From the UHGV virus genome UHGV-2004451: a DNA stretch of 11,886 nt, one strand, 5' to 3'. A model generated the notes under the pieces. That model did no database searches, was not told where the DNA came from, and worked only from the letters and a program-made list of their open reading frames with translations. Source of the stretch: a virus. Shown here in pieces: positions 1 to 9,528 of this stretch. Numbering within the stretch: the stretch's first letter is position 1; every line of letters begins with the position of its first letter. The translations under genes and the position numbers were made by a program.

Positions 1-462
1 TGCTCTCCGCTCCGAAGCACGCGATCCGAGCGGCACGAGACGCTCACTATCGCCGACTCGACCCTTACGATGCTGTTCCGGCAGGAGTTCGAGCGGCAGA
101 TCGAAACGCTCCGCCGAACCGTCGTGGAGTTTTATCCGCCGGCGGAATATCCGGAACCGAGCGACGATCGATTCCCGAATCCGACCGACACGCTCCGTGC
201 CGTTCTTCCGCCTCCGAAGATTCCGGCGGCGAGTGTTTCCCGGCAGCCGGTCAAGCGCATCTCTTATACCGAGGTGTCGATGCAGAACGACCGCACGATC
301 CTTACCGACAGCATTTCGCATAGCCGCATCAACACGGCAGCCCGCAACGACGTGCAGGAGCAGACCGACGAGCAGCCATCCTCCAGTGTCGCATGGCTCA
401 AGTGGGCGACGGCGCTCGTCGCACTGACGCTTCTGCTGCTCTTATTCCTCAAACTCCGATAA
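1..462 (+). CDS. Hypothetical protein with C-terminal transmembrane anchor; possibly the 3' end of a gene starting upstream of the window (alternative start ATG 70)
   Basis: Frame 1 is open from base 1 with no stop before the in-frame ATG at 70, so the true start is either upstream of the window or at 70. Stop TAA at 460-462. The C-terminus WLKWATALVALTLLLLLFLKLR is a single hydrophobic helix. No recognisable catalytic motif. Confidence 0.5.
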   Translation, partial: CSPLRSTRSERHETLTIADSTLTMLFRQEFERQIETLRRTVVEFYPPAEYPEPSDDRFPNPTDTLRAVLPPPKIPAASVSRQPVKRISYTEVSMQNDRTILTDSISHSRINTAARNDVQEQTDEQPSSSVAWLKWATALVALTLLLLLFLKLR

Positions 463-472
463 CCGAACCCTT

Positions 473-1255
473 ATGGCCAGATTGAAAACACCGATTTCAT
501 ACTATGGCGGCAAGCAGATGCTTCTGAAGCATATCCTGCCGCTGATTCCCGAACATACGCTCTATACGGAAGCCTTCTGCGGCGGCTGCGCCGTGCTGTT
601 CGCCAAGCCGCCCGCGCAGTGCGAGGTCATCAACGACACGAACACCGAATTGGTGAACTTCTACCGCGTGGCGCAGACGCAGTATGCGGCACTCAAGGCG
701 ATGATCGACGCGACGCTCCACAGCCGCGAGATACACGCGCACGCACGGCATATCAACGAGCATCCGTCGTTCTTCACGCCCGTCGAGCGGGCTTGGGCGG
801 TGTGGGTCTGCACGAAGTTGGGCTTCGCCTCGATGATCGACGGGACGTTCGGCTACGACCGCAGCGGCACGACGACGCTGAAACTCCGCAATGCGAAAGA
901 AGCCTTCACGGAGGAGTTGTGCAGCCGCCTCGACCGCGTTACGGTCGAGTGCGAGGACGGCATCGATGTCATCCGCCGCTACGACTGTCCCGAAGCGTTC
1001 CACTTCGTCGATCCTCCTTATGTCGGCAGCGACTGCGGACACTACAACGGTACGTTCGACGAGGAGGATTTTTCGCGGCTGCTCGACACGCTCGCGACGG
1101 TCGAAGGGAAGTTCATGCTCACGATGTTTCCGCACGAGAAGATAGAACGCCTCGCCGCCCGGTACGGCTGGACGATCCATCGGCTCGACCGCACCATCAC
1201 CGCCTCGAAAGTCTCCCGCCGCCGGCAGGAGGAGTGGATCACGACGAACTACTGA
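473..1255 (+). CDS. Dam-family (D12-class, alpha-type) N6-adenine DNA methyltransferase
   Basis: ATG start 11 nt after the upstream stop. Motifs appear in the order typical of Dam-like enzymes: YYGGK near the N-terminus, EAFCGGCAV (FxGxG-type AdoMet motif I), NDTNTELVNFY, and the catalytic DPPY (FHFVDPPYVG) near the C-terminus. The overlapping ORFs 497..1348(-) and 619..1302(+) have Arg/Gly-rich shadow composition. Confidence 0.9.
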   Translation: MARLKTPISYYGGKQMLLKHILPLIPEHTLYTEAFCGGCAVLFAKPPAQCEVINDTNTELVNFYRVAQTQYAALKAMIDATLHSREIHAHARHINEHPSFFTPVERAWAVWVCTKLGFASMIDGTFGYDRSGTTTLKLRNAKEAFTEELCSRLDRVTVECEDGIDVIRRYDCPEAFHFVDPPYVGSDCGHYNGTFDEEDFSRLLDTLATVEGKFMLTMFPHEKIERLAARYGWTIHRLDRTITASKVSRRRQEEWITTNY

Positions 1256-1265
1256 TATCGCCCAT

Positions 1266-2225
1266 ATGGAACCGAATACTATCCATACCTGCGACGCTCT
1301 GACCGGTCTTCGGCTGCTTCCCGACGAGTCGGTGGACTGCATCGTCACTTCGCCTCCGTACTGGCAGATGCGCGACTACGGCATCGGCTCGATCGTATGG
1401 CCGGACGGTTGGTCGGGACAGTTGGGGTTGGAACCTACGCGCGAGGAGTTCATCGCGCATCTGTGCATGATCTTCGACGAGTGCCGCCGCGTACTGAAAC
1501 CCTCCGGCACGCTGTGGGTGAACTTGGGCGATTCGTATAGCAAACCATACAAATACAACCGCCGACAAGATCCCAAGTGGAGCGAGAATTCGAAGAACAG
1601 CGATTGCCTTATAGACATCAAGGTCGATACGGTGCGTCACCGTATTCCATCCAAGTCGCTCTGCAATATTCCGAACAAGTTCGCTGACGAAATGATCCTG
1701 CGCGGCTGGGTGCTGCGCAACGAGATCATTTGGTACAAGCCCGCCTGTATGCCCGCCTCCGTGCGGGATCGTTTTACGGTGGACTTCGAGAAGATGTTCT
1801 TCTTTACCAAGTCGCAGCGATACTATTTCGAGCAGCAGTTCGAACCGTATGCCGCTTCATCTTTCGACCGCTATAAAAATCCGGTAACGCTCAACGGCAA
1901 AAGCGAAAAGTATCGCTGCATCAGCGGAAAACCTCACGGACGCCTCGAGATAAATCCTCGCGGTCGCAATATGCGGTGCGTGTGGCGTATCCCTTATGAA
2001 CCGAGCCACGAGGCGCACTATGCCATGTATCCTTCGCGATTGGTCGAGACGCCGATCGAAGCCGGATGTCCCGAAGGGGGACTCGTTCTCGATCCCTTTA
2101 TGGGCAGCGGAACGACGGCAGTCGTCGCCCGACGATTAGGACGCCATTACATCGGCTTCGAACCCAATCCGGAGTATGTCGCAATTTGCGAGAAGAGACT
2201 CGAACAGCAAACCCTCTCCCTTTGA
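1266..2225 (+). CDS. Beta-class N4/N6 DNA methyltransferase (N6_N4_Mtase-type); the SPPY catalytic motif favours N4-cytosine or N6-adenine specificity
   Basis: ATG start 10 nt after the stop of the upstream methyltransferase. Catalytic motif IV SPPY (CIVTSPPYW) is N-terminal and AdoMet motif I (VLDPFMGSGTTAVVARRLGRHYIGFE) is C-terminal, which is the beta-class order. A lower-G+C central segment (about 1540-1700) sits where a target-recognition region is expected. Confidence 0.9.
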   Translation: MEPNTIHTCDALTGLRLLPDESVDCIVTSPPYWQMRDYGIGSIVWPDGWSGQLGLEPTREEFIAHLCMIFDECRRVLKPSGTLWVNLGDSYSKPYKYNRRQDPKWSENSKNSDCLIDIKVDTVRHRIPSKSLCNIPNKFADEMILRGWVLRNEIIWYKPACMPASVRDRFTVDFEKMFFFTKSQRYYFEQQFEPYAASSFDRYKNPVTLNGKSEKYRCISGKPHGRLEINPRGRNMRCVWRIPYEPSHEAHYAMYPSRLVETPIEAGCPEGGLVLDPFMGSGTTAVVARRLGRHYIGFEPNPEYVAICEKRLEQQTLSL

Positions 2226-2226
2226 T

Positions 2227-3003
2227 ATGTCTTCGCATACTTACGACAATCCCGCCTATATCGCTTCGTGCTCGTTCGGCAAGGATTCGATCGCTACGAT
2301 CCTCCTTGCCCTCGAGCACGGCGAGCCGCTCGATGCCGCCGTCTTCTCGGAGGTGATGTTCGACCACTGGCGCAATATCAGCGGCGAGATACCCGAACAC
2401 ATCGAGTGGATCTACTCGACGGCTATTCCGCGTCTTGCAGCCTTGGGCGTACGGGTCGATGTCGTCCGTTCGGAGAAAGACTATCTTACGTTATTCCATA
2501 CGGTCATAGGGAGCGGTACGCATAAGGGTATGCTGCGCGGCTGGCTCATCGGCGGCAAGTGCTGCGCCAACCGCGACCTCAAAATCCGGCCCATACATCA
2601 TTATTACGGTCGTTTCCGCAAGCAGGGCGTCGTGCAGTACGTCGGCATCGCGGCCGACGAACCGAGACGCCTCGCGCGGATGCAGGACAAAGGGTATATC
2701 CGTAAAACAAGTCTGCTCGCCAAGTACGGGTACACCGAGGCGGATGCCCGACGCAAGTGCGAAGAATACGGTCTGCTGTCGCCTCTCTACCGAACCTCGC
2801 ATCGGGGCGGTTGCTGGTTCTGCCCCAACTGCCGCATACCGGTCTTCGCCGAACTGCGCCGCCGACATCCCGAACTGTGGCGCGAACTGCAACGGCTTTC
2901 GAAGGTCGGAAATAAGTCATCCGAAGGCTTCAAATACGGGCAGACTTTCGAGGAGATCGAGCGGAGGATGGATCTCTTCGAACACGCGCCGACGCTATTC
3001 TAA
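2227..3003 (+). CDS. PAPS-reductase / DndC-like PP-loop ATP pyrophosphatase family protein (putative nucleotide or DNA modification enzyme)
   Basis: N-terminal PP-loop-like motif SCSFGKDS (SxGxDS type) and a C-terminal cysteine cluster CWFCPNC. The ATG at 2227 lies 1 nt after the TGA of the upstream methyltransferase (TGAtATG), implying translational coupling. An in-frame ATG at 2176 would overlap the upstream gene by 50 nt and is considered less likely. Confidence 0.7.
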   Translation: MSSHTYDNPAYIASCSFGKDSIATILLALEHGEPLDAAVFSEVMFDHWRNISGEIPEHIEWIYSTAIPRLAALGVRVDVVRSEKDYLTLFHTVIGSGTHKGMLRGWLIGGKCCANRDLKIRPIHHYYGRFRKQGVVQYVGIAADEPRRLARMQDKGYIRKTSLLAKYGYTEADARRKCEEYGLLSPLYRTSHRGGCWFCPNCRIPVFAELRRRHPELWRELQRLSKVGNKSSEGFKYGQTFEEIERRMDLFEHAPTLF

Positions 3004-3007
3004 ATAA

Positions 3008-3090
3008 CTGAAAATAAATATGATAATAGTTGCCGGATAACTTGCGTGTTCCGAATAACGATGTTATGTTTGCAGTACGATAAACAACTG
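3008..3090 (+). promoter_or_regulatory. Promoter repeat copy 1 (Bacteroidota-type -33 TTG / -7 TATGTTTG)
   Basis: An ~82-bp AT-rich element about 95% identical to copy 4. TTG at 3042-3044, a 20-nt spacer, and TATGTTTG at 3065-3072 match the TTTG-N19-21-TAnnTTTG consensus of Bacteroidota primary promoters. The leader contains GATAAACAACTG. It lies directly upstream of gene 3118..3540. Confidence 0.6.
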
Positions 3091-3117
3091 AATAATAAAC
3101 GATTAAAACACCCGAAC

Positions 3118-3540
3118 ATGACAAGTGCACAGGCAAAACAGATCGCATCGAACTATATGCGGCAGCAGAGCGATTACGTATTTTCGGCGGTAACGGTTAA
3201 AAGCCTCGCTCCGGCGAACGGACCAGTTAAGGTGTGGCTCACCACCGAAGACGACTACGGGGACGAACTGATCGTCGAGGTCGAGATGGACCCGCAGTCG
3301 AATGAGATCCGCTGGAAGAAGATCTGCAACACGGGACGCCTATCCGAATATCTGAAGCCGGCTACTCGGATCGATAAACTTTCGGCAGGACAACGCTTCC
3401 GGCTGCAAGGCGACTGCGTGGTTTACGAGTTCGTGGACAATGTAAAGGACCGCAGCAGTATTCCCTATATCATCCGACGGGCGGACCGGTCCGGTTGCGT
3501 ATCGAGAGTCGGATGGCAGGAAGTTTTTCCTATCGAGTAA
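3118..3540 (+). CDS. Hypothetical small protein (141 aa), first gene behind promoter repeat copy 1
   Basis: The ORF track gives 3046..3540, but its GTG start lies inside the promoter repeat (-7 box at 3065-3072). The first ATG downstream of the predicted transcription start is 3118. Balanced amino-acid composition; stop TAA at 3538-3540 is followed by a hairpin at 3550-3576. No recognisable motif. Confidence 0.6.
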   Translation: MTSAQAKQIASNYMRQQSDYVFSAVTVKSLAPANGPVKVWLTTEDDYGDELIVEVEMDPQSNEIRWKKICNTGRLSEYLKPATRIDKLSAGQRFRLQGDCVVYEFVDNVKDRSSIPYIIRRADRSGCVSRVGWQEVFPIE

Positions 3541-3549
3541 CCGATAACC

Positions 3550-3576
3550 GCGCACCTTGCCGAAAGGCAGGTGCGC
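3550..3576 (+). terminator. Stem-loop downstream of gene 3118..3540 (possible terminator or RNA processing site)
   Basis: GCGCACCTTGCC-GAAA-GGCAGGTGCGC: an 11-bp GC-rich stem with one bulged base and a GAAA tetraloop. No U-tract follows, so intrinsic-terminator function is uncertain. Confidence 0.4.
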
Positions 3577-3589
3577 ATAAAACGATACG

Positions 3590-3808
3590 ATGATGAAACT
3601 CCGCCGAACAAAAACCGGAACTTACACGATTGCGGGTATTACCGCAACTCAATATCGCGCCCTTGCGGCTGTGCTTACTACCGCCGATGGGCGTTGCTTC
3701 GACGAGCAGGACGGGGACGGCAACTATTACAGCAACGACGATTTCGTCTGCTCGCTCGATGGCGATGAACGCGAGGCATTGCGACAGGTGTGCGACGCGC
3801 TTCGATAA
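3590..3808 (+). CDS. Hypothetical small acidic protein (72 aa)
   Basis: ATG at 3590, 14 nt after the 3550-3576 hairpin. The C-terminal half is Asp/Glu-rich (DEQDGDGNYYSNDDFVCSLDGDERE). The competing frame 3571..3768 is Arg-rich and looks like a shadow ORF. Stop TAA at 3806-3808 lies just before promoter repeat copy 2. Confidence 0.45.
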   Translation: MMKLRRTKTGTYTIAGITATQYRALAAVLTTADGRCFDEQDGDGNYYSNDDFVCSLDGDEREALRQVCDALR

Positions 3809-3819
3809 CGTGTAAGATA

Positions 3820-3901
3820 TTGAAAATAAATGCGATAATAATTGCAGAAAGACTTGCGTGTCCCGAATTATGATGCCATCTTTGCAGCGTGATAAACAAC
3901 T
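3820..3901 (+). promoter_or_regulatory. Promoter repeat copy 2 (degenerate -7 box CATCTTTG)
   Basis: Same element with several substitutions. TTG at 3854-3856, 20-nt spacer, CATCTTTG at 3877-3884, then GATAAACAACT at 3891-3901. Directly upstream of gene 3917..4249. Confidence 0.5.
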
Positions 3902-3916
3902 AATATAGAGCGTATT

Positions 3917-4249
3917 ATGAGTACAAAAGCAAGAATCGGAGTAAGACTTCCCGACGGAAAAATCAAAAGCATCCATATATGGCGGGACGGACATCCCGAT
4001 ACGTTGGGCGAAATGTTGTCTGCGCACTACAATACATTGGAATCGGCAATGGCACTGGTCGAACGAGGCAACATAATCGATGTGGAGGCACGTCTCGAAG
4101 AGTGCCGGTTCGAGAAATCGAATGAACGGTGCGAAACCGAGCCTCGGATTTATAAAACGGTCGCCGCCTACGAACGAGAAATCGAGGAGGATATATGTTA
4201 CAAATATCTCTATCGGGACGGCAAGTGGGAATACCGGGCGGTCGATTAG
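3917..4249 (+). CDS. Hypothetical small protein (110 aa), behind promoter repeat copy 2
   Basis: ATG at 3917, about 25 nt downstream of the predicted transcription start of promoter copy 2. Protein-like composition with a Glu-rich C-terminus. Followed by a structured 3' region containing hairpins at 4285-4302 and 4337-4367. Confidence 0.65.
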   Translation: MSTKARIGVRLPDGKIKSIHIWRDGHPDTLGEMLSAHYNTLESAMALVERGNIIDVEARLEECRFEKSNERCETEPRIYKTVAAYEREIEEDICYKYLYRDGKWEYRAVD

Positions 4250-4284
4250 TAACCGACTTCCGATCGTAAGGAGCGAATGCTCCG

Positions 4285-4304
4285 AGCCTCCGACGGGAGG
4301 CTTT
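4285..4304 (+). terminator. Hairpin plus short T-run in the 3' region of gene 3917..4249
   Basis: AGCCTCC-GACG-GGAGGCT (perfect 7-bp stem) followed by TT. It is preceded by a second small hairpin GGAGC-GAAT-GCTCC at 4270-4283. Confidence 0.35.
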
Positions 4305-4316
4305 CCCTCGTTTCGT

Positions 4317-4397
4317 CCATTCAGTTGTTTATTGCGACCGGAGCCGTGCATCGTGTACGGCTCCGGTTTTCGTTCGAAGGCGGGACATTGTTTCTGC
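4317..4397 (+). repeat. Conserved structured 3' element, copy A
   Basis: CCATTCAGTTGTTTATTGCG, then the CCGGAGCCG/CGGCTCCGG hairpin with a loop containing CATCNTGT, then GGGACATTGTTTCTGC. Shares flank, stem core, loop motif and downstream motif with copy B. Confidence 0.6.
4337..4370 (+). terminator. Intrinsic-terminator-like hairpin (core of conserved 3' element copy A)
   Basis: ACCGGAGCCGT-GCATCGTGT-ACGGCTCCGGT: a perfect 11-bp stem followed by TTTT. Confidence 0.55.
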
Positions 4398-4469
4398 AAC
4401 GGATCTTCGGCAGCATGTATATTTACCATATGGGATATGCTTGATAAATAGTTGATATTCTTTGAATTA

Positions 4470-4533
4470 AGTTGTCGATAAACTTGCGCGTCCCGAATAA
4501 TGATGTTATGTTTGCAGTGCAACAAACAATTGA
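4470..4533 (+). promoter_or_regulatory. Promoter repeat copy 3 (core only; upstream part divergent)
   Basis: TTG at 4484-4486, 20-nt spacer, TATGTTTG at 4507-4514, with the conserved core CTTGCGCGTCCCGAATAATGATGTTATGTTTGCAGTGC. The leader motif is altered to CAACAAACAATTG. Upstream of gene 4560..4778. Confidence 0.55.
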
Positions 4534-4559
4534 ACTACAATCTATTAAACGACTCGATC

Positions 4560-4778
4560 ATGAATACTGCGAATCGAAAAAGAACGGAGATCGACGCCGA
4601 ACTCGACCGGTTGGAGGTCGAATTCGAAAAGAACCGTAAGGAGATGCAAGGCCTTGCCGACGAGAACAGACGTGCCGGCAACCGCTACGGCGAATTATCG
4701 AATGCGAATCACGACATCAACAACCGGATCCTCACATTGCTCGCTGAGCGTTGGGAATCGGAAGAGACGGCTGATTGA
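4560..4778 (+). CDS. Hypothetical small coiled-coil protein (72 aa), behind promoter repeat copy 3
   Basis: The ORF track gives 4500..4778, but that start lies inside promoter copy 3 (-7 box at 4507-4514). The first ATG in the leader is 4560. The sequence is charged with heptad-like spacing (EIDAELDRLEVEFEKNRKEMQGLADENRR). Stop TGA at 4776-4778 is followed by a GC-rich hairpin. Confidence 0.55.
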   Translation: MNTANRKRTEIDAELDRLEVEFEKNRKEMQGLADENRRAGNRYGELSNANHDINNRILTLLAERWESEETAD

Positions 4779-4791
4779 CGAAACGAGAGAC

Positions 4792-4824
4792 GACCCCGCC
4801 GAGAAACCGTCTTCGGGGCGGGGT
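4792..4824 (+). terminator. GC-rich hairpin downstream of gene 4560..4778
   Basis: ACCCCGCC...GGCGGGGT: an 8-bp G+C stem with a 16-nt loop that can partly pair (GAA/TTC), followed by TT. It begins 14 nt after the stop codon. Confidence 0.45.
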
Positions 4825-4855
4825 TAAGACCCGAAACAGGAGAACACATAAAGAG

Positions 4856-5053
4856 ATGAAAACGATGAATGCAAATGCAACGGTAGGCGACAAGATTCGC
4901 ATTATCCATCTTCGCGACGAGGACAGCCGTTACGACGGCAAGGAGGGTACGATCGAGTTCATCGACTCGCTCGGACAACTGCACGGCACGTGGGGTGGCT
5001 TGGCAGTCATTCCCGAAGTCGATCGGTTCGTAATTATCGAGAAACCGGAATAA
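4856..5053 (+). CDS. Hypothetical small protein (66 aa), beta-rich, reminiscent of small DUF-type domains common in phages and mobile elements
   Basis: The ORF track gives 4775..5053, starting at a TTG that overlaps the upstream hairpin. The first ATG after the hairpin is 4856. The motif GDKIRIIHLRDEDSRYDGKEGTIEFIDSLGQLHGTWGGLAVIPEVDRFVI looks like a small SH3/KOW-like beta domain. That assignment comes from memory only and is not verified. Confidence 0.5.
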   Translation: MKTMNANATVGDKIRIIHLRDEDSRYDGKEGTIEFIDSLGQLHGTWGGLAVIPEVDRFVIIEKPE

Positions 5054-5074
5054 TCGCCGGCAACGATAATGCTC

Positions 5075-5096
5075 GGTTCCGCCATCTTTTCGGAAC
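5075..5096 (+). terminator. Weak hairpin downstream of gene 4856..5053
   Basis: GGTTCCG-CCATCTTTT-CGGAAC: a 6-bp stem with a U-rich loop, lying between the stop codon and promoter repeat copy 4. Confidence 0.3.
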
Positions 5097-5106
5097 ACCT
5101 AATTTA

Positions 5107-5188
5107 CTGAAAATAAATACGATAATAGTCGCCGAACAACTTGCGTGTTCCGAATAACGATGTTATGTTTGCAGTACGATAAACAACT
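5107..5188 (+). promoter_or_regulatory. Promoter repeat copy 4 (near-identical to copy 1)
   Basis: TTG at 5141-5143, 20-nt spacer, TATGTTTG at 5164-5171, leader GATAAACAACT at 5178-5188. About 4 mismatches to copy 1 over 82 bp. Directly upstream of gene 5204..5491. Confidence 0.6.
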
Positions 5189-5203
5189 AAAAAAGAGCGA
5201 ATT

Positions 5204-5491
5204 ATGAGAACGAACATCGAACGGTTTTTAGAGAGATTCCCGAAGAATGCCACGAATTGGGCGCAGGCGACGGACGAGGTGCGCGACATGGCTCGCAAGG
5301 CTCGCGAATTGTTGGAAGAGTACGAAGGCGTCATCGTCGAACCGGTAAATTTCCGGGCTATCGAGACCCCGGCCGAGTGGAATACCGAAGGTCGCGAGTT
5401 CATCCTGACGAATTTCGATCGCATGGCGGATAGGACCAAAGAGCGCTTCTACGACTACTTCCGCGAGTGGTTCGAAGGCGAAGAGGAATAG
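5204..5491 (+). CDS. Hypothetical small protein (95 aa) with acidic C-terminus, behind promoter repeat copy 4
   Basis: ATG at 5204, about 25 nt downstream of the predicted transcription start of promoter copy 4. C-terminus is FREWFEGEEE. Stop TAG at 5489-5491 is followed by a perfect 14-bp hairpin at 5500-5536. Confidence 0.65.
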   Translation: MRTNIERFLERFPKNATNWAQATDEVRDMARKARELLEEYEGVIVEPVNFRAIETPAEWNTEGREFILTNFDRMADRTKERFYDYFREWFEGEEE

Positions 5492-5499
5492 ACCGACGC

Positions 5500-5536
5500 A
5501 CGGATGCTCCCCGCAGCTCGAACGGGGAGCATCCGT
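5500..5536 (+). terminator. Strong hairpin downstream of gene 5204..5491
   Basis: ACGGATGCTCCCCG-CAGCTCGAA-CGGGGAGCATCCGT: a perfect 14-bp stem beginning 9 nt after the stop codon. No U-tract follows. Confidence 0.5.
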
Positions 5537-5594
5537 CCTAACCCCGGAGTAGGGTTGCACACGTCGTCTCTTTCGATAGGAAATCTATCGTGCT

Positions 5595-5672
5595 CCATCA
5601 GTTGTTTATTGCAGCCGGAGCCGCATCATGTGCGGCTCCGGCAATCTCATTATAGAGGGACTTTGTTTCAGC
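5595..5672 (+). repeat. Conserved structured 3' element, copy B
   Basis: CCATCAGTTGTTTATTGCA, then the same hairpin core, then GGGACTTTGTTTCAGC. About 85% identical to copy A with a structure-preserving substitution in the stem. Confidence 0.6.
5614..5642 (+). terminator. Hairpin (core of conserved 3' element copy B)
   Basis: GCCGGAGCCGCA-TCATG-TGCGGCTCCGGC: a perfect 12-bp stem. Homologous to the 4337-4367 hairpin, with a compensatory T-A to C-G change at the loop-proximal pair. Confidence 0.5.
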
Positions 5673-5716
5673 GATGAGGCCTTTTGCCATTTTACCTTTA
5701 TTCCCGCGACAAAGGT

Positions 5717-8581
5717 ATGGCGATTTTCGGTCTAAAATATTACGCTGAACTTCGCTCGAAGTACAAGGGCGTTTTGTGGCGCGTGGAGATTTCGGAGCGG
5801 GGGTACGCAGGTCCGTCGGAGGAGATGGCCTTCGACGGCGGTACGCCGTTGCAGATTACGTGGGAGAAACGGGGCGACGAGTTCTACGTGCCGGTCAAGG
5901 CTTCGGAGGCGACCATCAATATCCTCTGCAAGGAGAATTTCCATTACCTGGCTCTGTTCACCTCCGATCCCCGTTATTTTCGCGTCTCGATTTTCCGCAA
6001 TCGGCAGCTCTATTGGCGGGGCTACGTCACCTCCGACCTCTACTCCGAGAACTTCACCGCTCCGCCCTATACCGTTACGATCAAGGCCGTGGACGGCTTC
6101 AACCTCTTGTCGAGCATTCCGTTCCGCGACCTCGTACATATCGGCATCGCGGGCAGGCGGTCGCTATGGGAACTGCTCTCCTCCTGCATCGACTTGTTGG
6201 AGTTGGATCTCGATACGGCGGACTGGATGGATCTGTATGTCGAGGGCATGGACGAGAACGCCTCTTCGCTCCGTCAAACCTATATCGACCTCGAACGGCT
6301 CTACTACGTCTACGAGGAGCCTACCTATCGCGACATCCTCGAACTGTGCCTGCGTCCGTTCGCCGGACAGATCTTCCAGTCGAACGGTGCCCTGCATATC
6401 CGCCGCGCCGTATCGCTCTACCGAACTGCCCGTCCCGTGAATTTCTATCGCGTCGGCACGGAGCATCCCGTCGGGCGGATCGTTACGGGCAGCGGACTGC
6501 GGCTCGTGATCCATACCGGTGCGCAGGTCGTCACATCGGCTGCACGCGAGCGCATCGACGGCATGTGGACGGGCGACCTGCACATCGAGGGAAGTTCGAC
6601 GCTCGACATCGTCCCTGCGCTGCGCAAGGTCTCGGTCGATGTAAAGAACAAGAGCCTCGACAACCTGATCGCCCGCATCGGGTTCTACGATCCCGACGCT
6701 TGGACGGATCCGCACGGCTTCGTCTCCGTGAAGAGCGGAGAGGAACTCTATTTCAGCGGCGAGGATGCCTATCGGGGTGCGGAAGTCGTAACTCGGGGCT
6801 TTCCCGTCGAGCAGTGCAACTTCCCGCTCGTATGGGAGTTCGGGTTGCAGACCTACCATCGGGAGTGGGGACTGGGCATTTACCGCCCGAACGAAAGCGT
6901 CGATGTCGCGGTGCATTACGGCGTCCGCATCGTCGGCGAAAAGGCGACATACAGCCTCGCCGAGAGCGGTTCGTGGGTGCAGTCCTCCGACGGGGAGATC
7001 GCGAGTACGGTCAAGACCGGCAACGAGCAGAACATGAAGATCGAGATCGACGGCATCCCCTGCGACGGCGAGTGGCGGTTCTTCGTCCGGCAGACGCTCA
7101 TCGGCAAGATCACGACCTATACCGACCGCTTCGGCAATCCGAGCGGCCGCACTTCGGGCTATATGGAGAGCGCCGCGTTCCGCAAGATGACGCTCTCGAT
7201 CGATGCGGGCGACAGCTACGACAAGGGTTTGCGCTACGAGTCGCTCGTCGATCCCGCGAACAATGTCGATATGTCCGTAACGCTTCCCGTGAGCGATATT
7301 CCCGCCATTCCGAACGACCGGCTGCTCTATGCGCTCTACTACCTCGATGCCGCCGGCAATCCCACGCGCATCTGGCATACGAAAGGTCGGAACGACTACG
7401 ACACGCTGGTCGGTCATATCGTGCAGGGAGCATTGCGGTACAAGCAGCTGCCGAGCCGGCGCATCACGGGCGAGATCTTCACGGGGCAGCATATCGATAT
7501 GAATACGGTGGTTCGGGACGACAAGTTCCTGAACGCCGCCTATTACCTGAACTCCATCGAACTGAATGCCCTCGACGACTCCTACAACAGCGAACTCACG
7601 GAGATGCCGCGCCTGCTCGCAACGGAGAGACCGCCGGAGGGCGACGACTGCATAGCGGTCGCGACGCTCTCCTTCACGGTCGGCAAGGCGATCCGCTGCC
7701 TGAACCGTCTGCTGCTCCAGTCCGTCGATAAAAAGACGGTCTATGCCTTCGACACCGCCACGCGGCAGGTACGGGAGATCTACCGCAGCACGGCATCCTT
7801 CGAGATGTACGAGGCGGACGAGGGTTTCGTCGCGGTGGACGGGAAAGGGGTCCGCTACCTCGACTATCGCGGTACGGTCGAACGGATATATACCCCGCCG
7901 GAGGAGTACCGCAACGTCGCGACCTACATGGACGGATATATCCATATCCTGAAATCCTACCGGCAATATATCGGTCCGCGGGGCGGCGATGCCGGCGGAC
8001 GCAGCGCCCGCACGGCAGAGGACGAGGATCCGAACTATCGCACCTATCGTTACCTCTCGCGCCCGGAGTGCAAGTACATTTCGCCCGATGCCTCGACCGG
8101 ATATCGCGGACGGGGATATGCCTACGAGGGTACGCCGATGTCGGGTGCGATCCTCGCCCTGCGGCGTACGGAAAATACGATCGTCGTGAATACCTCGCAT
8201 GGCGCCTATCTGCACGACAAGCGGTTCCACCAGCCCTGTAAGATGCTGCAATTCGCTGCGGGCGAGCAGATCGTCACCGTCTCCGACAACTATATCGGCA
8301 TCAACGCCGACGATATGCTGTGGTTCTATCGGCGGGATTCGATTACCGAGCGGACGCTGCTCCGGCGGTTGGGACGCTGGGCGGATCACGCCGACCATAC
8401 GATGAGCGAGGTCGTACACTCCTACGACGACGGCATCTTCATCCGGAACTTCCGCGACGACACGACGACCGACGTTCGGAACGCCGCCGGCTGGGGCGAG
8501 AACATCATGGGGCTGTTTTTCATCTGCGGCGACCTCTATATCGTGCGCGAACGGGCGATTTACAAATACATTCCTGAATAA
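5717..8581 (+). CDS. Large hypothetical protein (954 aa from the first ATG; 965 aa if the TTG at 5684 is used); possibly a virion or tail-associated structural protein
   Basis: This is the only one of three overlapping long ORFs with protein-like composition (aromatic-rich, balanced). The overlapping 5776..7731(+) frame is Arg/Gly-rich and 6164..8854(-) is Ser/Arg-rich, both typical shadow ORFs of GC-rich coding DNA. No Walker A or other catalytic motif was seen. The gene lies in the same + strand block as the tape measure gene. The function call is inference only. Confidence 0.75.
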   Translation: MAIFGLKYYAELRSKYKGVLWRVEISERGYAGPSEEMAFDGGTPLQITWEKRGDEFYVPVKASEATINILCKENFHYLALFTSDPRYFRVSIFRNRQLYWRGYVTSDLYSENFTAPPYTVTIKAVDGFNLLSSIPFRDLVHIGIAGRRSLWELLSSCIDLLELDLDTADWMDLYVEGMDENASSLRQTYIDLERLYYVYEEPTYRDILELCLRPFAGQIFQSNGALHIRRAVSLYRTARPVNFYRVGTEHPVGRIVTGSGLRLVIHTGAQVVTSAARERIDGMWTGDLHIEGSSTLDIVPALRKVSVDVKNKSLDNLIARIGFYDPDAWTDPHGFVSVKSGEELYFSGEDAYRGAEVVTRGFPVEQCNFPLVWEFGLQTYHREWGLGIYRPNESVDVAVHYGVRIVGEKATYSLAESGSWVQSSDGEIASTVKTGNEQNMKIEIDGIPCDGEWRFFVRQTLIGKITTYTDRFGNPSGRTSGYMESAAFRKMTLSIDAGDSYDKGLRYESLVDPANNVDMSVTLPVSDIPAIPNDRLLYALYYLDAAGNPTRIWHTKGRNDYDTLVGHIVQGALRYKQLPSRRITGEIFTGQHIDMNTVVRDDKFLNAAYYLNSIELNALDDSYNSELTEMPRLLATERPPEGDDCIAVATLSFTVGKAIRCLNRLLLQSVDKKTVYAFDTATRQVREIYRSTASFEMYEADEGFVAVDGKGVRYLDYRGTVERIYTPPEEYRNVATYMDGYIHILKSYRQYIGPRGGDAGGRSARTAEDEDPNYRTYRYLSRPECKYISPDASTGYRGRGYAYEGTPMSGAILALRRTENTIVVNTSHGAYLHDKRFHQPCKMLQFAAGEQIVTVSDNYIGINADDMLWFYRRDSITERTLLRRLGRWADHADHTMSEVVHSYDDGIFIRNFRDDTTTDVRNAAGWGENIMGLFFICGDLYIVRERAIYKYIPE

Positions 8582-8591
8582 GTGCGAAACT

Positions 8592-8966
8592 ATGGAAACA
8601 CTATCCATCATTCTGAACTTCATTCTTGCCAGCGGGTTGGCGGGAACGATCCTCTTTTTCAACGCGAAGAAGCGCAAGGAGAACGCGGCCGCCGACTCCG
8701 CCGAATTAGCGAACACGGAGAAGGTCGTGGCGATCCAATCCGAGCAGATCACGCGGCTGGACGGGCGCGTGGAGAAACTCGAAGAGAAGGTCGGCAAACT
8801 CGAAATCATCATCGAGCACAAGGACGTGGAGATCGACCGCAGCCGCATCGTCATCCGACAGGCCTACAAGTGCGAAACGCCGCCCGAACATTGCCCGGTC
8901 TTGCTCAAAAGAGCCGAGTTGGAGCGCAAGCGCAAAGAGACCGACGAAAATAACCGAAAATCATAA
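8592..8966 (+). CDS. Small membrane-anchored coiled-coil protein (124 aa); i-spanin-like or holin-like architecture
   Basis: ATG 11 nt after the upstream stop. N-terminal hydrophobic helix SIILNFILASGLAGTILFF followed by a charged heptad-like region (RLDGRVEKLEEKVGKLEIIIEHKDVEID). Two Cys near the C-terminus. The competing 8582..8953 frame is an Arg-rich shadow. Confidence 0.6.
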   Translation: METLSIILNFILASGLAGTILFFNAKKRKENAAADSAELANTEKVVAIQSEQITRLDGRVEKLEEKVGKLEIIIEHKDVEIDRSRIVIRQAYKCETPPEHCPVLLKRAELERKRKETDENNRKS

Positions 8967-9015
8967 AGCGATGAGCAGAGGACTGAATAATTGTAACCGA
9001 CGCCGCGGAGCGAGA

Positions 9016-9039
9016 GCAGAACCCGCTTGCGGGCTCTGC
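9016..9039 (+). terminator. Hairpin in the intergenic region after gene 8592..8966
   Basis: GCAGAACCCGC-TT-GCGGGCTCTGC: an approximately 9-bp stem with one A-C mismatch. Weak evidence. Confidence 0.3.
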
Positions 9040-9099
9040 CGAGCCTCAAGGAGGAAACGATTGCTACAATGACATTCCGGAACGAATAACACAGATATT

Positions 9100-9522
9100 A
9101 TGAACGAGAAAACTTTGCCGAGAGGGATGCGCAATCGTAATCCCGGCAATATCCGCCGGTCGGCGACGAAGTATCTGGGCGAAGTTGCGCCCTCGCGCGA
9201 TGCCGCATTCAAGCAGTTCGAGACGATGGCGTGGGGCTACCGCGCGATGTTCGTGCTGCTGGACTCCTACTCCCGCAAGGGCTACCGGACAATCCGGCAG
9301 ATGATCTCGCGCTACGCTCCGCCCATCGAGAACCATACCGAAAACTATATCCGTTGTGTGGCCGAATGGTCGGGTATCGGCGCCGACGAGCCGGTCGATA
9401 CGCAGGCGGGCGAGACGATGATTCCTATCGTGGCGGCTATGTCGCAGGTGGAAAACGGGCAACCGGCGGTACTATCGGACGTCGAGGCGGGCTGGACGCT
9501 CTATCTGCAACACAAACCCTAA
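9100..9522 (+). CDS. Hypothetical protein (140 aa) immediately upstream of the tape measure gene
   Basis: ATG at 9100; stop TAA at 9520-9522 lies only 6 nt before the tape measure start. Protein-like composition with the N-terminal motif RNRNPGNIR. Function not recognised. Confidence 0.65.
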   Translation: MNEKTLPRGMRNRNPGNIRRSATKYLGEVAPSRDAAFKQFETMAWGYRAMFVLLDSYSRKGYRTIRQMISRYAPPIENHTENYIRCVAEWSGIGADEPVDTQAGETMIPIVAAMSQVENGQPAVLSDVEAGWTLYLQHKP

Positions 9523-9528
9523 ACAGCC

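Follow-up and report, generated by a model that had tools for sequence, protein, structure and literature searches.

The moron concept reportedly arose first from comparisons of HK97 and HK022. By the definition given in the abstract of "The moron comes of age" (PMC3594210), the locus described here resembles morons, since it consists of independent predicted transcription units, each recognised at the sequence level by a promoter and a terminator and lying between conserved late genes; some phages have these units and otherwise similar ones lack them, and their base composition is unlike that of their flanks. Classic morons are single insertions, each with an unrelated promoter and terminator, whereas here four to seven units use one promoter family and one terminator family. 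The sharing of these families argues that the array recombines with itself.

A second described system is that of the PeSL (promoter-early stem-loop) cassettes of the hyperplastic regions of T4-type phages (PMC2839356, Arbiol et al. 2010), some features of which we take from Comeau et al. 2014 (PMC4122927). According to the portions of these articles on which we rely, the PeSL is a repeated, A/T-rich intergenic motif, extending from the upstream stop codon to the start codon of an ORFan and containing a host primary-sigma consensus promoter; its copies are clustered in a plastic region, upstream of ORFans, and close relatives differ by indels and replacements with junctions in the motif. The same is observed here, with the consensus promoter in three of four copies and one mismatch in the remaining one, P2. 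Exchange between nearby PeSL motifs is also described to yield mini-circles (PMC2839356). Several differences can be listed: the promoter is of the Bacteroidota -33/-7 type and not a sigma-70 promoter, the phage is a temperate siphovirus prophage and not a lytic T4-like myovirus, and the repeat is longer and more uniform (~97 nt, four to seven copies, a single locus). In addition, the stem-loop is part of the PeSL motif, whereas the repeats here have none of their own and the terminators are separate, and the 3' element contains the reverse complement of the leader, which is not among the PeSL features described in those portions. The locus thus matches the PeSL cassettes of T4-type phages and the morons, but in a temperate Bacteroidota phage. 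We consider it likely that this temperate Alistipes siphovirus carries an array of self-contained expression cassettes ("morons"), with a PeSL-like organisation, which recombines via its promoter copies.

Genomic context of the island

The window, that is the whole stretch of 11,886 nt analysed (virus genome UHGV-2004451), is part of an integrated, temperate Alistipes siphovirus prophage, as judged from gene content and matching contigs; matching sequences occur both in Alistipes MAG contigs and in contigs from the gut that reach 844 kb. The prophage genes are ordered as follows: capsid, tail tube, chaperones, methyltransferases, PAPS-reductase-like gene, island, 954-aa protein, tape measure, fibre and integrase. 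The 2.7-kb island, preceded by the methyltransferase and PAPS-reductase module, is located between the tail-chaperone genes and the tape-measure gene, and its GC content is 0.47-0.55 versus 0.58-0.62 in the flanks. The tail-gene region is the classic position for morons, unlike an early region, and the designation of these genes as early in the initial annotation does not agree with an island located there in a temperate, integrated phage. The four promoter copies, the two related 3' elements and the six open reading frames which that annotation described were all found, the reading frames exactly where it had placed them (Table 1). The identity of 85-95% that it gave between units was too high, since the promoter copies are 61-88% identical in pairs, 88% being reached by P1 and P4 only, and the 3' elements 70% (58/83).

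Table 1. Features of the island, in window coordinates; hairpins are predicted
Feature	Coordinates	Strand	Description
P1	3001..3097	+	begins at TAA stop of upstream PAPS-reductase-like gene; -33 TTG 3042-3044; -7 TATGTTTG 3065-3072; leader box ACGATAAACAACTGA 3077-3091; long leader (ATG 45 nt past -7 box)
g1	3118..3540	+	140 aa; narrow orphan family; dN/dS 0.12-0.16
g1-g2 intercistronic hairpin	3550..3576	+	GAAA loop; -22 kcal/mol, z -5.3
g2	3590..3808	+	72 aa; pI 4.7; dN/dS 0.14-0.23; no family match
P2	3813..3911	+	-33 TTG 3854-3856; -7 CATCTTTG 3877-3884, one consensus mismatch; leader box 3889-3903; short leader (ATG 32 nt past -7 box)
g3	3917..4249	+	110 aa; phrog_1987; cassette missing from several relatives
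3' element A	4321..4394	+	box TCAGTTGTTTATTGC 4321-4335; motif GGGACATTGTTTC 4382-4394
Element A terminator hairpin	4336-4368	+	-28 kcal/mol, z -5.7; then T-rich tail
P3	4445..4540	+	-33 TTG 4484-4486; -7 TATGTTTG 4507-4514; leader box GCAACAAACAATTGA 4519-4533; long leader (45 nt)
g4	4560..4778	+	72 aa; probably coiled coil; dN/dS 0.11-0.21; no family match
g4-g5 hairpin	4792..4825	+	-21 kcal/mol, z -2.6
g5	4856..5053	+	65 aa; DUF4314 (E 1.3e-9); dN/dS 0.05-0.22
P4	5100..5198	+	-33 TTG 5141-5143; -7 TATGTTTG 5164-5171; leader box ACGATAAACAACTAA 5176-5190; short leader (32 nt)
g6	5204..5491	+	95 aa; homologues across Rikenellaceae prophages
3' element B	5598..5669	+	box TCAGTTGTTTATTGC 5598-5612; motif GGGACTTTGTTTC 5657-5669
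Element B terminator hairpin	5614-5642	+	-29 kcal/mol, z -5.9

The repeats resemble host promoters

The four ~97-nt repeats are co-oriented, and their 36-nt core, ACTTGCGYGTYCCGAATWAYGATGYYATSTTTGCAG, occurs four times with none expected (200 shuffles). The pattern TTG-N17-23-TAnnTTTG is present at three sites in the 11.9 kb, all inside the repeats, for a shuffle mean of 0.33; there the spacer between the -33 TTG and the -7 TAnnTTTG is 20 nt, and the mismatch in P2 is CA for TA. This pattern fits the sigma-ABfr consensus, and the leader has A at -3 and at -11 to -13, as in Bacteroidota mRNAs (PMC7366714). An A/T-rich tract lies upstream of the promoter, the leader is conserved, and the A-rich start region is devoid of a Shine-Dalgarno sequence. 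A comparison of 102 unique repeat copies put the conservation maxima at the leader box and at the -33 and -7 boxes. All 146 copies present in the first 48 loci point the same way as their downstream genes. The promoter before g6 is ~88% identical between the window and the related locus L027, although the dS of g6 is ~1.5, and conservation of the repeat exceeds the neutral expectation. No consistent stem-loop was found inside the repeats, the folding z being -0.1 to +0.3 for P2-P4. The repeat would act as a Bacteroidota sigma-A promoter; we infer its activity and that of the terminators from the sequence.

The leaders fall into two classes, long (P1 and P3) and short (P2 and P4), while in their upstream halves it is P1 that resembles P4, so that the promoter copies are mosaics. 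The two parallel super-units proposed in the initial annotation are consistent with these leader classes and with the homology of elements A and B, but not with the upstream halves, nor with relatives that gain or lose single cassettes.

In the explanation that we favour, each repeat would be a portable 5' module made of the upstream stop codon, a UP-like tract, the sigma-A promoter, the leader box and an A-rich start. Host RNA polymerase would initiate ~6-8 nt past the -7 box, and each transcript would carry one to three small accessory genes and end at hairpin A or B, which are strong predicted terminators, with weaker predicted stops after g1, g4 and g5. The similarity of these 5' modules would allow homologous recombination from copy to copy, by which cassettes are deleted, inserted or re-driven, and the shared 3' element would provide a further mosaic junction.

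Cassette turnover among related loci

We compared 59 related loci, collected via the exact promoter pattern, which makes the sampling biased. Their arrays contain 3-7 promoter copies, and cassettes are present or absent as whole units. The sample is dominated by the commonest arrangement, P[g1 g2] P[g3] P[g4 g5] P[g6]. L001, L004, L008, L013 and L019 carry an additional cassette, P[g0 + own terminator]. In L004 and L031, g3 and element A are missing and the promoter is a hybrid, identical with P2 through TTTGCAG and thereafter with the P3 leader; L016 and L039 also have a hybrid promoter, with the upstream half of P0 and the leader of P1. These hybrids mark the crossovers. Slots are refilled by other genes (x8, x25 and x20) in relatives, one lineage has 7 promoter copies and several different genes, and the g0 and g3 cassettes vary between relatives whose flanks are ~95% identical. 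Most relatives lose similarity to the window just past the element B hairpin (~5643). In a Mucinivorans element, g3-like and g6-like genes are adjacent, without promoter repeats.

This gain, loss and replacement of cassettes bears out the idea of a hotspot for accessory genes whose regulatory flanks are conserved. Comparison of the locus with its relatives showed cargo exchanged between conserved promoters, with junctions in the repeats. The cargo is variable, as had been supposed, but not random: the core g1, g3, g5 and g6 keeps the same order across lineages, and turnover is therefore moderate.

All placeable crossovers lie near the -7 box, as either a site-specific process or exchange at the longest shared stretch would give. 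In two contigs of 1.5-1.6 kb (L026 and L032, one with 1.3x coverage) we observed the junction g5-[P4 upstream half / P1 or P0 leader]-g1, as expected of a circle or a tandem duplication; misassembly would explain it equally well, since P1 and P4 share ~50 identical nt. Together with the 15-nt inverted boxes found at both ends of each transcription unit (see below), these observations would also be accounted for by an integron- or transposon-like element, one whose repeats are the substrate of a site-specific recombinase or whose boxes serve as terminal inverted repeats. Integrons, too, are tandem arrays in which small unrelated genes can be exchanged and the structured 3' elements are conserved. 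We find an integron- or transposon-like element very improbable. No IntI-type integrase or transposase adjoins the island and no attI was found; the sole integrase is that of the prophage, ~11 kb away, beyond the tail-fibre genes. The indels are bounded in the promoter rather than at the boxes, the junctions are those expected of homologous exchange within promoter copies, and the junction contigs are short. An integron cassette array was also rejected because each cassette here has its own promoter, unlike the promoterless integron cassettes that each end in attC, and only some have the 3' element.

The six genes

All six genes are real and under purifying selection, with dN/dS of 0.05-0.30 (0.16-0.18 for g6, with dS up to 2). 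Their products are mutually dissimilar, as first noted, with BLASTP E>1 in all pairs. Profile and structure searches gave DUF4314 for g5 and phrog_1987 for g3, the latter with homologues in T4-like cyanophages and in Streptococcus, Erwinia and Vibrio phages, and otherwise no informative match: apart from DUF4314, nothing was found in Pfam, NCBIfam, PDB sequences or PADLOC, whose models are for defence and not anti-defence. The AF2 model of g1 has two domains, the N-terminal one weakly PepSY-like, with no significant fold match; that of g6 is confident and all-helical (pLDDT 88, pTM 0.78), with no fold match in PDB or BFVD. The position of the genes suggests that they are accessory, with expression not tied to the late operon and probably taking place in the lysogen or immediately upon infection.

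It was initially proposed that the island is an early anti-defence or host-takeover array, some acidic products being DNA mimics. Small, diverse ORFans with their own strong predicted host-type promoters would suit such a role, as would a neighbourhood in which defence and counter-defence functions abound (two DNA methyltransferases, the PAPS-reductase / SspD-like gene, an AbiE toxin-antitoxin pair and an NgoFVII-type restriction enzyme) and the presence of the g3 family across unrelated phages. The phage, however, is temperate and integrated, with the island in its tail-gene region, and characterised proteins give no sequence or fold match; for known DNA mimics in particular, there was none among Pfam, NCBIfam and PDB sequences, nor a significant fold match for the g1 and g6 models. 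"Markedly acidic" was an overstatement, since the pI is 4.7-6.3 and the net charge 0 to -8. The value of -8, that of g6, goes in the direction of a mimic, but Ocr and ArdA have a very high negative charge density and a much larger negative charge, and the pI values are far from those of known mimics. We regard an early anti-defence array as unlikely.

Complementary boxes at the two ends of the predicted transcripts

Elements A and B, which follow g3 and g6, are homologous, and their well-conserved core of ~45 nt comprises a 15-nt box and the hairpin. The stem is conserved across relatives with wobble and double changes, while in L027 it is exchanged for an unrelated one. Hairpins of the island occur apart from the repeats, 50-130 nt upstream of P3 and P4, and none was found in the g2-P2 interval.

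The leader box has its reverse complement in the box just 5' of each terminator hairpin. Each of the four predicted transcripts has an MFE structure in which the 5' and 3' ends are paired over 12-16 bp. With the four leaders the 3' box pairs at a predicted -17 to -24 kcal/mol, and in the window it is their best or near-best partner. On the + strand ATAAACAAC lies inside promoter repeats in 104/104 cases, and GTTGTTTAT is immediately 5' of a hairpin in 55/66. It is possible, though at rather less than even chances, that the 3' box pairs with the leader box, which would stand at the very 5' end of each cassette mRNA, and that each mRNA thereby closes on itself, altering its stability or translation. 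Whether as a panhandle stacked on the terminator or as a processed 3' fragment acting in trans on all leaders, an RNA device common to the cassettes is a doubtful extension of this idea. If true, one shared sequence pair would set the translation or decay of many unrelated accessory genes, and the boxes would travel with the promoter and terminator modules during cassette shuffling. The complementarity had escaped the initial annotation.

In hok-family mRNAs the full-length transcript is kept inert by base pairing of the 3' fbi element to the 5' end. The cassettes are similar in having, at the 3' terminus, a short segment complementary to the 5' leader, with pairing predicted in the full-length transcript; they differ in that neither a toxin nor an antisense RNA partner is evident, the pairing is a prediction and one box pair is common to several different mRNAs.

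Alternatively, both boxes could be one protein-binding site, for instance of a phage regulator, serving as an operator at about +5 to +20 and recurring at the terminators, in which case RNA pairing would play no part. Their near invariance would be expected of such a site, and box variation includes little compensatory change and several variants that give mismatches. The site is not palindromic and no candidate regulator was found, while the fixed orientation in both places, the retention of the box where the hairpin is swapped, one compensated change (L035) and a sense-strand bias (28 versus 13 pairs) fit RNA pairing somewhat better. We give a protein-binding site a low probability.

The 3' box could also be the seed of a 3'-UTR-derived small RNA acting in trans on all cassette leaders, with array-wide feedback. 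A seed followed by a terminator is the usual layout of such RNAs, and in isolated folds of the 3' UTR the box is single-stranded, immediately 5' of the strong terminator hairpin, and complementary to all four leaders. Bacteroides is reported to have candidate 3'-UTR-derived small RNAs (PMC7366714). The box has no internal promoter ahead of it, so that the RNA would need processing, no Rfam family matched, and cis pairing is as compatible with the observations as action in trans; we hold a small RNA to be quite unlikely. Downstream of element B, the ATG of the 954-aa virion protein is at 5717, 47 nt after motif GGGACTTTGTTTC.

A predicted Bacteroidota promoter is repeated in the island

The island contains four copies (P1 to P4) of a repeat of about 97 nt, six small genes (g1 to g6) and two 3' elements, A and B. 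The promoter repeats and 3' elements proposed in the initial annotation are real, but the identity of 85-95% claimed for them is too high: we found 61-88% in pairwise comparisons of P1-P4 over the repeat, the closest pair being P1 and P4, and 70% between A and B over 83 nt.

Positions of the island features in the window
Feature	Position	Description
P1	3001-3097	repeat copy, co-oriented with P2-P4
g1	3118-3540	small gene
g2	3590-3808	small gene
P2	3813-3911	repeat copy, co-oriented with P1, P3 and P4
g3	3917-4249	small gene
A	4321-4394	3' element after g3
P3	4445-4540	repeat copy, co-oriented with P1, P2 and P4
g4	4560-4778	small gene
g5	4856-5053	small gene
P4	5100-5198	repeat copy, co-oriented with P1-P3
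g6	5204-5491	small gene
B	5598-5669	3' element after g6

A 36-nt core, ACTTGCGYGTYCCGAATWAYGATGYYATSTTTGCAG, matches the window four times, whereas none of 200 dinucleotide-preserving shuffles contained any match. This core consists of TTG, 20 nt and TATGTTTG. For the primary sigma factor of Bacteroidota, TTTG near -33 and TAnnTTTG at -7 have been described, and the mRNAs of these bacteria, which are without Shine-Dalgarno sequence, are enriched in A at -3, -6 and -11 to -15 (PMC7366714). We observed that TTG-N17-23-TAnnTTTG occurs at three sites in the 11.9-kb window, every one inside the repeats (shuffle mean 0.33); the -7 box of P2 has CA instead of TA. As read from the sequence, A occupies -3 and -11 to -13 in each of the four leaders. 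Scans of the window for sigma-70 promoters and classic terminators picked up neither the repeats nor hairpins A and B, and the sigma-70 scan was set aside because Bacteroidota promoters are outside its scope.

Among 102 unique repeat copies taken from related loci, peaks of information content coincide with the upstream stop codon, an A/T tract, the -33 and -7 boxes and a leader box, GATAAACAAC. In the window and the related locus L027, the promoters in front of g6 share about 88% identity, while the synonymous sites of g6 are saturated (dS about 1.5); by this comparison, conservation of the repeat exceeds neutral expectation. We propose that the repeat is a Bacteroidota promoter, a prediction from which we infer its activity. 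P1-P4 are mosaic: P1 and P4 group together by their upstream halves, and the leaders are of two types, a long one (P1 and P3) with the ATG 45 nt downstream of the -7 box and a short one (P2, P4 and P0, a further copy in relatives) with the ATG 32 nt downstream.

Promoter leaders are complementary to a box preceding the predicted terminators

Elements A and B have in common a 15-nt box, TCAGTTGTTTATTGC, a hairpin of 13-15 bp and a downstream motif, GGGACWTTGTTTC, the box lying 0-2 nt 5' of each terminator hairpin. The folding energies of hairpins A and B are -28 and -29 kcal/mol, respectively (z about -5.8). Other hairpins of the island follow g1 (z -5.3), g4 (z -2.6) and, weakly, g5, and fold analysis of the island found none after g2. 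An Rfam search of the island, 3' elements and leaders included, returned no family.

The commonest leader box, GCAATAAACAACTGA, starts about 5 nt past the -7 box, and TCAGTTGTTTATTGC is its exact reverse complement; this complementarity was absent from the initial annotation. It could be thought that the 3' element is an inverted truncated promoter copy, but we rejected this origin, as the similarity is confined to the 15-nt box and does not extend to the -7/-33 region beyond. In 484 kb of related loci, ATAAACAAC occurs 104 times on the sense strand, always within promoter repeats, and 55 of the 66 occurrences of GTTGTTTAT are immediately 5' of a hairpin. In the L027 lineage, the box is retained though an unrelated stem replaces the hairpin.

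Duplexes between leader and box were calculated at -17 to -24 kcal/mol, against a window median of -6, and when the whole window was compared the 3' boxes were the best or near-best pairing partner of each leader. We then folded the predicted full-length transcripts, those starting at P1 and P2 and ending at A (1295 and 483 nt, respectively) and those starting at P3 and P4 and ending at B (1133 and 476 nt). Each of the four has a leader/box helix of 12-16 bp in its minimum-energy structure; the ensemble expectation is 12-16 pairs, falling to 3-6 when the box is reversed. Variation among relatives argues weakly for the pairing: covariation is sparse, with one compensated change (leader AAACGACTGA with box TCAGTCGTTTAT in L035) and several uncompensated ones, and among 42 unique but non-independent leader/box pairs the transcribed-strand duplex is stabler than the opposite-strand one in 28 and less stable in 13. 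The complementarity could alternatively belong to a trans-acting 3' fragment, constitute a protein-binding site or be a functionless relic. An mRNA closed in cis by pairing of its leader with its 3' box is the single most likely reading of the predicted helix, and we put it forward tentatively.

Past the hairpins, a motif, GRGACWTTGTTTC, is found at window 4382-4394 (after A) and 5657-5669 (after B), and at 13949-13961 of the related locus L048. The copy after B lies 47 nt before the ATG of the 954-aa gene, and that of L048 lies 51 nt before the fibre gene, directly past an inserted restriction-enzyme gene. Three matches in 20 kb compare with 0.09 expected. This motif does not resemble the TAnnTTTG consensus and may serve, downstream of accessory insertions, as a restart or late promoter.

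Cassettes are gained, lost and replaced among Alistipes prophages

The core pattern matched 8 DNA stretches on 7 IMG/VR contigs, 9 on 8 GTDB genome contigs and 30 on 27 metagenome contigs. Six of the eight GTDB contigs belong to Alistipes MAGs, one to Cryptobacteroides, and one, of 1.3 kb, was binned as Clostridiales. The element is integrated, since carrier contigs reach 844 kb. L002 is the contig from which the window derives (99.99% identity), and in the assembly collection 230 blocks index one window protein, w140 (9100-9522); near and distant DNA searches of GenBank phages gave no match to the window or the island.

The first 48 loci, searched with an nhmmer profile of the repeat, contain 146 copies, every one co-oriented within its array, with 3-7 copies per array. 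The commonest cassette map is that of the window, U275 P[g1 g2] P[g3 T] P[g4 g5] P[g6 T], where P is a promoter repeat and T a 3' element. Five loci have an additional first cassette, P[g0], comprising a 101-aa gene and its own terminator (L001, L004, L008, L013, L019), and P[g3 T] is missing from five (L004, L031, L003, L025, L035), the last three of which carry a third 3' element copy after g2. Slots are occupied by other genes in several loci: L015, L018, L041 and L046 have that of a 207-250-aa protein, and L045, L037 and L017 have yet others. Seven promoter copies and several different genes characterise a divergent lineage (L022, L027+L028, L033+L034, L043). One of its cassettes (L027 913-1275, L043 1068-1430) encodes a 120-aa protein starting MGTWGSGNF, which we take to resemble the DUF4259 family.

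The accessory-gene hotspot that had been suspected is supported by this cassette gain, loss and slot replacement. Cargo does change between the conserved elements, but the turnover is moderate, g1, g3, g5 and g6 recurring in constant order. Tandem duplication with divergence was rejected as the origin of the array because the six proteins are without mutual similarity.

Cassette junctions are located within the repeats. The g4 promoter of L004 and L031 follows P2 up to CATCTTTGCAG and then the P3 leader (63/65 and 28/32 matches); L016 and L039 join the P0 upstream half to the P1 leader (61/65 and 28/32), and L001 and L036 have the reciprocal type of hybrid. Misassembly is unlikely for the P2/P3 hybrids because P2 and P3 have no long exact word in common, and hybrid variants were found too in long contigs from independent samples. 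In two short contigs, L026 (1628 bp) and L032 (1462 bp), g5 is joined to g1 through a P4 upstream half and a P1 or P0 leader. Such a junction is expected if the array has been duplicated in tandem or excised as a circle, but could also come from misassembly across the roughly 50 nt in which P1 and P4 are identical; coverage is 1.3x in one of the two contigs.

In Mucinivorans hirudinis, g3-like and g6-like genes are adjacent in one operon without promoter repeats; its locus L054 (HG934468.1) gave at most one weak repeat match (E 0.19), and the leader and 3' boxes were not found in it. Because this operon is without the repeats, the spread of the promoter family appears to have taken place within the Alistipes phage lineage. 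The related Mucinivorans element (6438-7482) adjoins an integrase, a gene of 932 aa and a D12 methyltransferase.

The six island proteins

The six reading frames are present as initially annotated, and their products are mutually dissimilar. Compared with orthologues from related loci, each of the six genes is under purifying selection (dN/dS 0.05-0.30). For g1, a word-index search returned close relatives only, and when 1.84 billion representatives were searched in full with a HMMER profile, a narrow family of 21 clusters emerged, none informative; its AF2 model has two domains (pLDDT 80, pTM 0.49), the N-terminal half with weak PepSY-like similarity (E 0.05-0.2). No informative match was obtained for g2 and g4, and PDB sequence searches with g2-g5 gave nothing useful. 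The g3 protein belongs to phrog_1987, to which no function is assigned, with homologues in T4-like cyanophages and in phages of Streptococcus, Erwinia, Yersinia and Vibrio, all annotated as hypothetical. The g5 protein is a DUF4314 member, a family of which our literature search found no mention. The model of g6 is confident and helical (pLDDT 88), and a fold search with it against PDB and BFVD returned no match. PADLOC and NCBIfam matched none of the six. The proteins have pI values of 4.7-6.3 and net charges of 0 to -8; the suggestion that the island encodes early anti-defence or DNA-mimic proteins is not supported, as we found nothing in its favour here.

Comparison with PeSLs, morons and integrons

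The closest described system is the PeSL cassette of T4-type phages. As outlined in two papers (PMC2839356; PMC4122927), PeSLs are repeated motifs that begin at the upstream stop codon in A/T-rich sequence, carry a host consensus promoter and extend to the start codon of an ORFan; they are clustered in hyperplastic regions, with indels arising through recombination. All the features so outlined are present in the array too. However, fold analysis revealed no built-in stem-loop, a defining feature of PeSLs, in its repeat, and relative to that outline the array also differs in host promoter type, phage lifestyle and the leader-complementary 3' box. The description of morons as independent transcriptional units spread by horizontal transfer (PMC3594210) fits each unit of the array, but array units have one promoter family and one terminator family in common. 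The array is not an integron, as it is without IntI or attI and its cassettes carry predicted promoters. Judged by these likenesses, the locus is a PeSL-like array of moron-type cassettes that uses a predicted Bacteroidota promoter module and is carried by a widespread Alistipes prophage.

Arrays of small genes of unknown function are home to much of the host-interaction repertoire of phages, and their build and expression are known mainly from T4-like and lambdoid phages of Proteobacteria. The Alistipes locus would apply the same logic in a very common temperate gut phage, with a portable promoter module that doubles as recombination homology, in bacteria whose promoters and translation signals are unlike classical ones. 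It offers a compact, probably strong natural promoter-leader module, as predicted, for Rikenellaceae and Bacteroidales, and about 20 small gene families as candidates for lysogenic conversion, defence and counter-defence. The conserved 5'/3' mRNA complementarity common to unrelated genes is testable and merits experiment.

Genomic context of the island

In the window lineage, the gene order is as follows: major capsid, connector and tail completion; an AbiEii/AbiEi pair on the opposite strand; tail tube and two chaperone-sized genes; a 130-aa membrane protein; a D12 and then an N4/N6 methyltransferase; a PAPS-reductase/SspD-like protein; the island; a 954-aa virion protein, a 124-aa protein and a 140-aa protein with a PHROG endolysin-family match (phrog_873); tape measure; an NgoFVII-type restriction enzyme on the opposite strand; fibre and a DUF285 protein; and an integrase on the opposite strand, with host genes beyond. 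The island, whose GC is below that of its flanks, is therefore an insertion within the tail-gene region of a temperate siphovirus. In most siphoviruses, the chaperone genes adjoin the tape-measure gene; here about 9.5 kb (window 1-9528) lie between them, containing the two methyltransferases, the PAPS-reductase-like gene, the island and the 954-, 124- and 140-aa proteins.

Directly past hairpin B (about 5643), the similarity of several relatives (L004, L006, L009, L013) to the window stops. Three downstream contexts were observed: the 954-aa virion gene on the plus strand, as in the window, a 380-aa zinc-ribbon gene, or the gene of a 346-aa protein that, on reading its sequence, looks like a zinc-dependent alcohol dehydrogenase. 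In the latter two, the DUF285, fibre and tape-measure genes come next on the opposite strand, so the distal tail block is inverted relative to the head/tail-tube block in part of the lineage. Inversion via two copies of the palindromic hairpin was considered and rejected, no second copy being present at the far end of the inverted block (L048).

The N4/N6 methyltransferase gene (window 1266-2225) is missing in many close relatives (L001, L006, L008, L009, L013, L014) and present in L004 and L048-L053; promoter repeats do not bound this indel. In window-type prophages, the NgoFVII-type restriction-enzyme gene separates the tape-measure gene from the fibre gene (minus strand; L048 12883-13935). 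Upstream of the window, the AbiEii toxin and AbiEi-like antitoxin genes (L002 3485-4670, opposite strand) lie between the tail-completion and tail-tube genes, and L008 carries a divergent AbiE pair (48-57% identity) elsewhere, upstream of its capsid gene.
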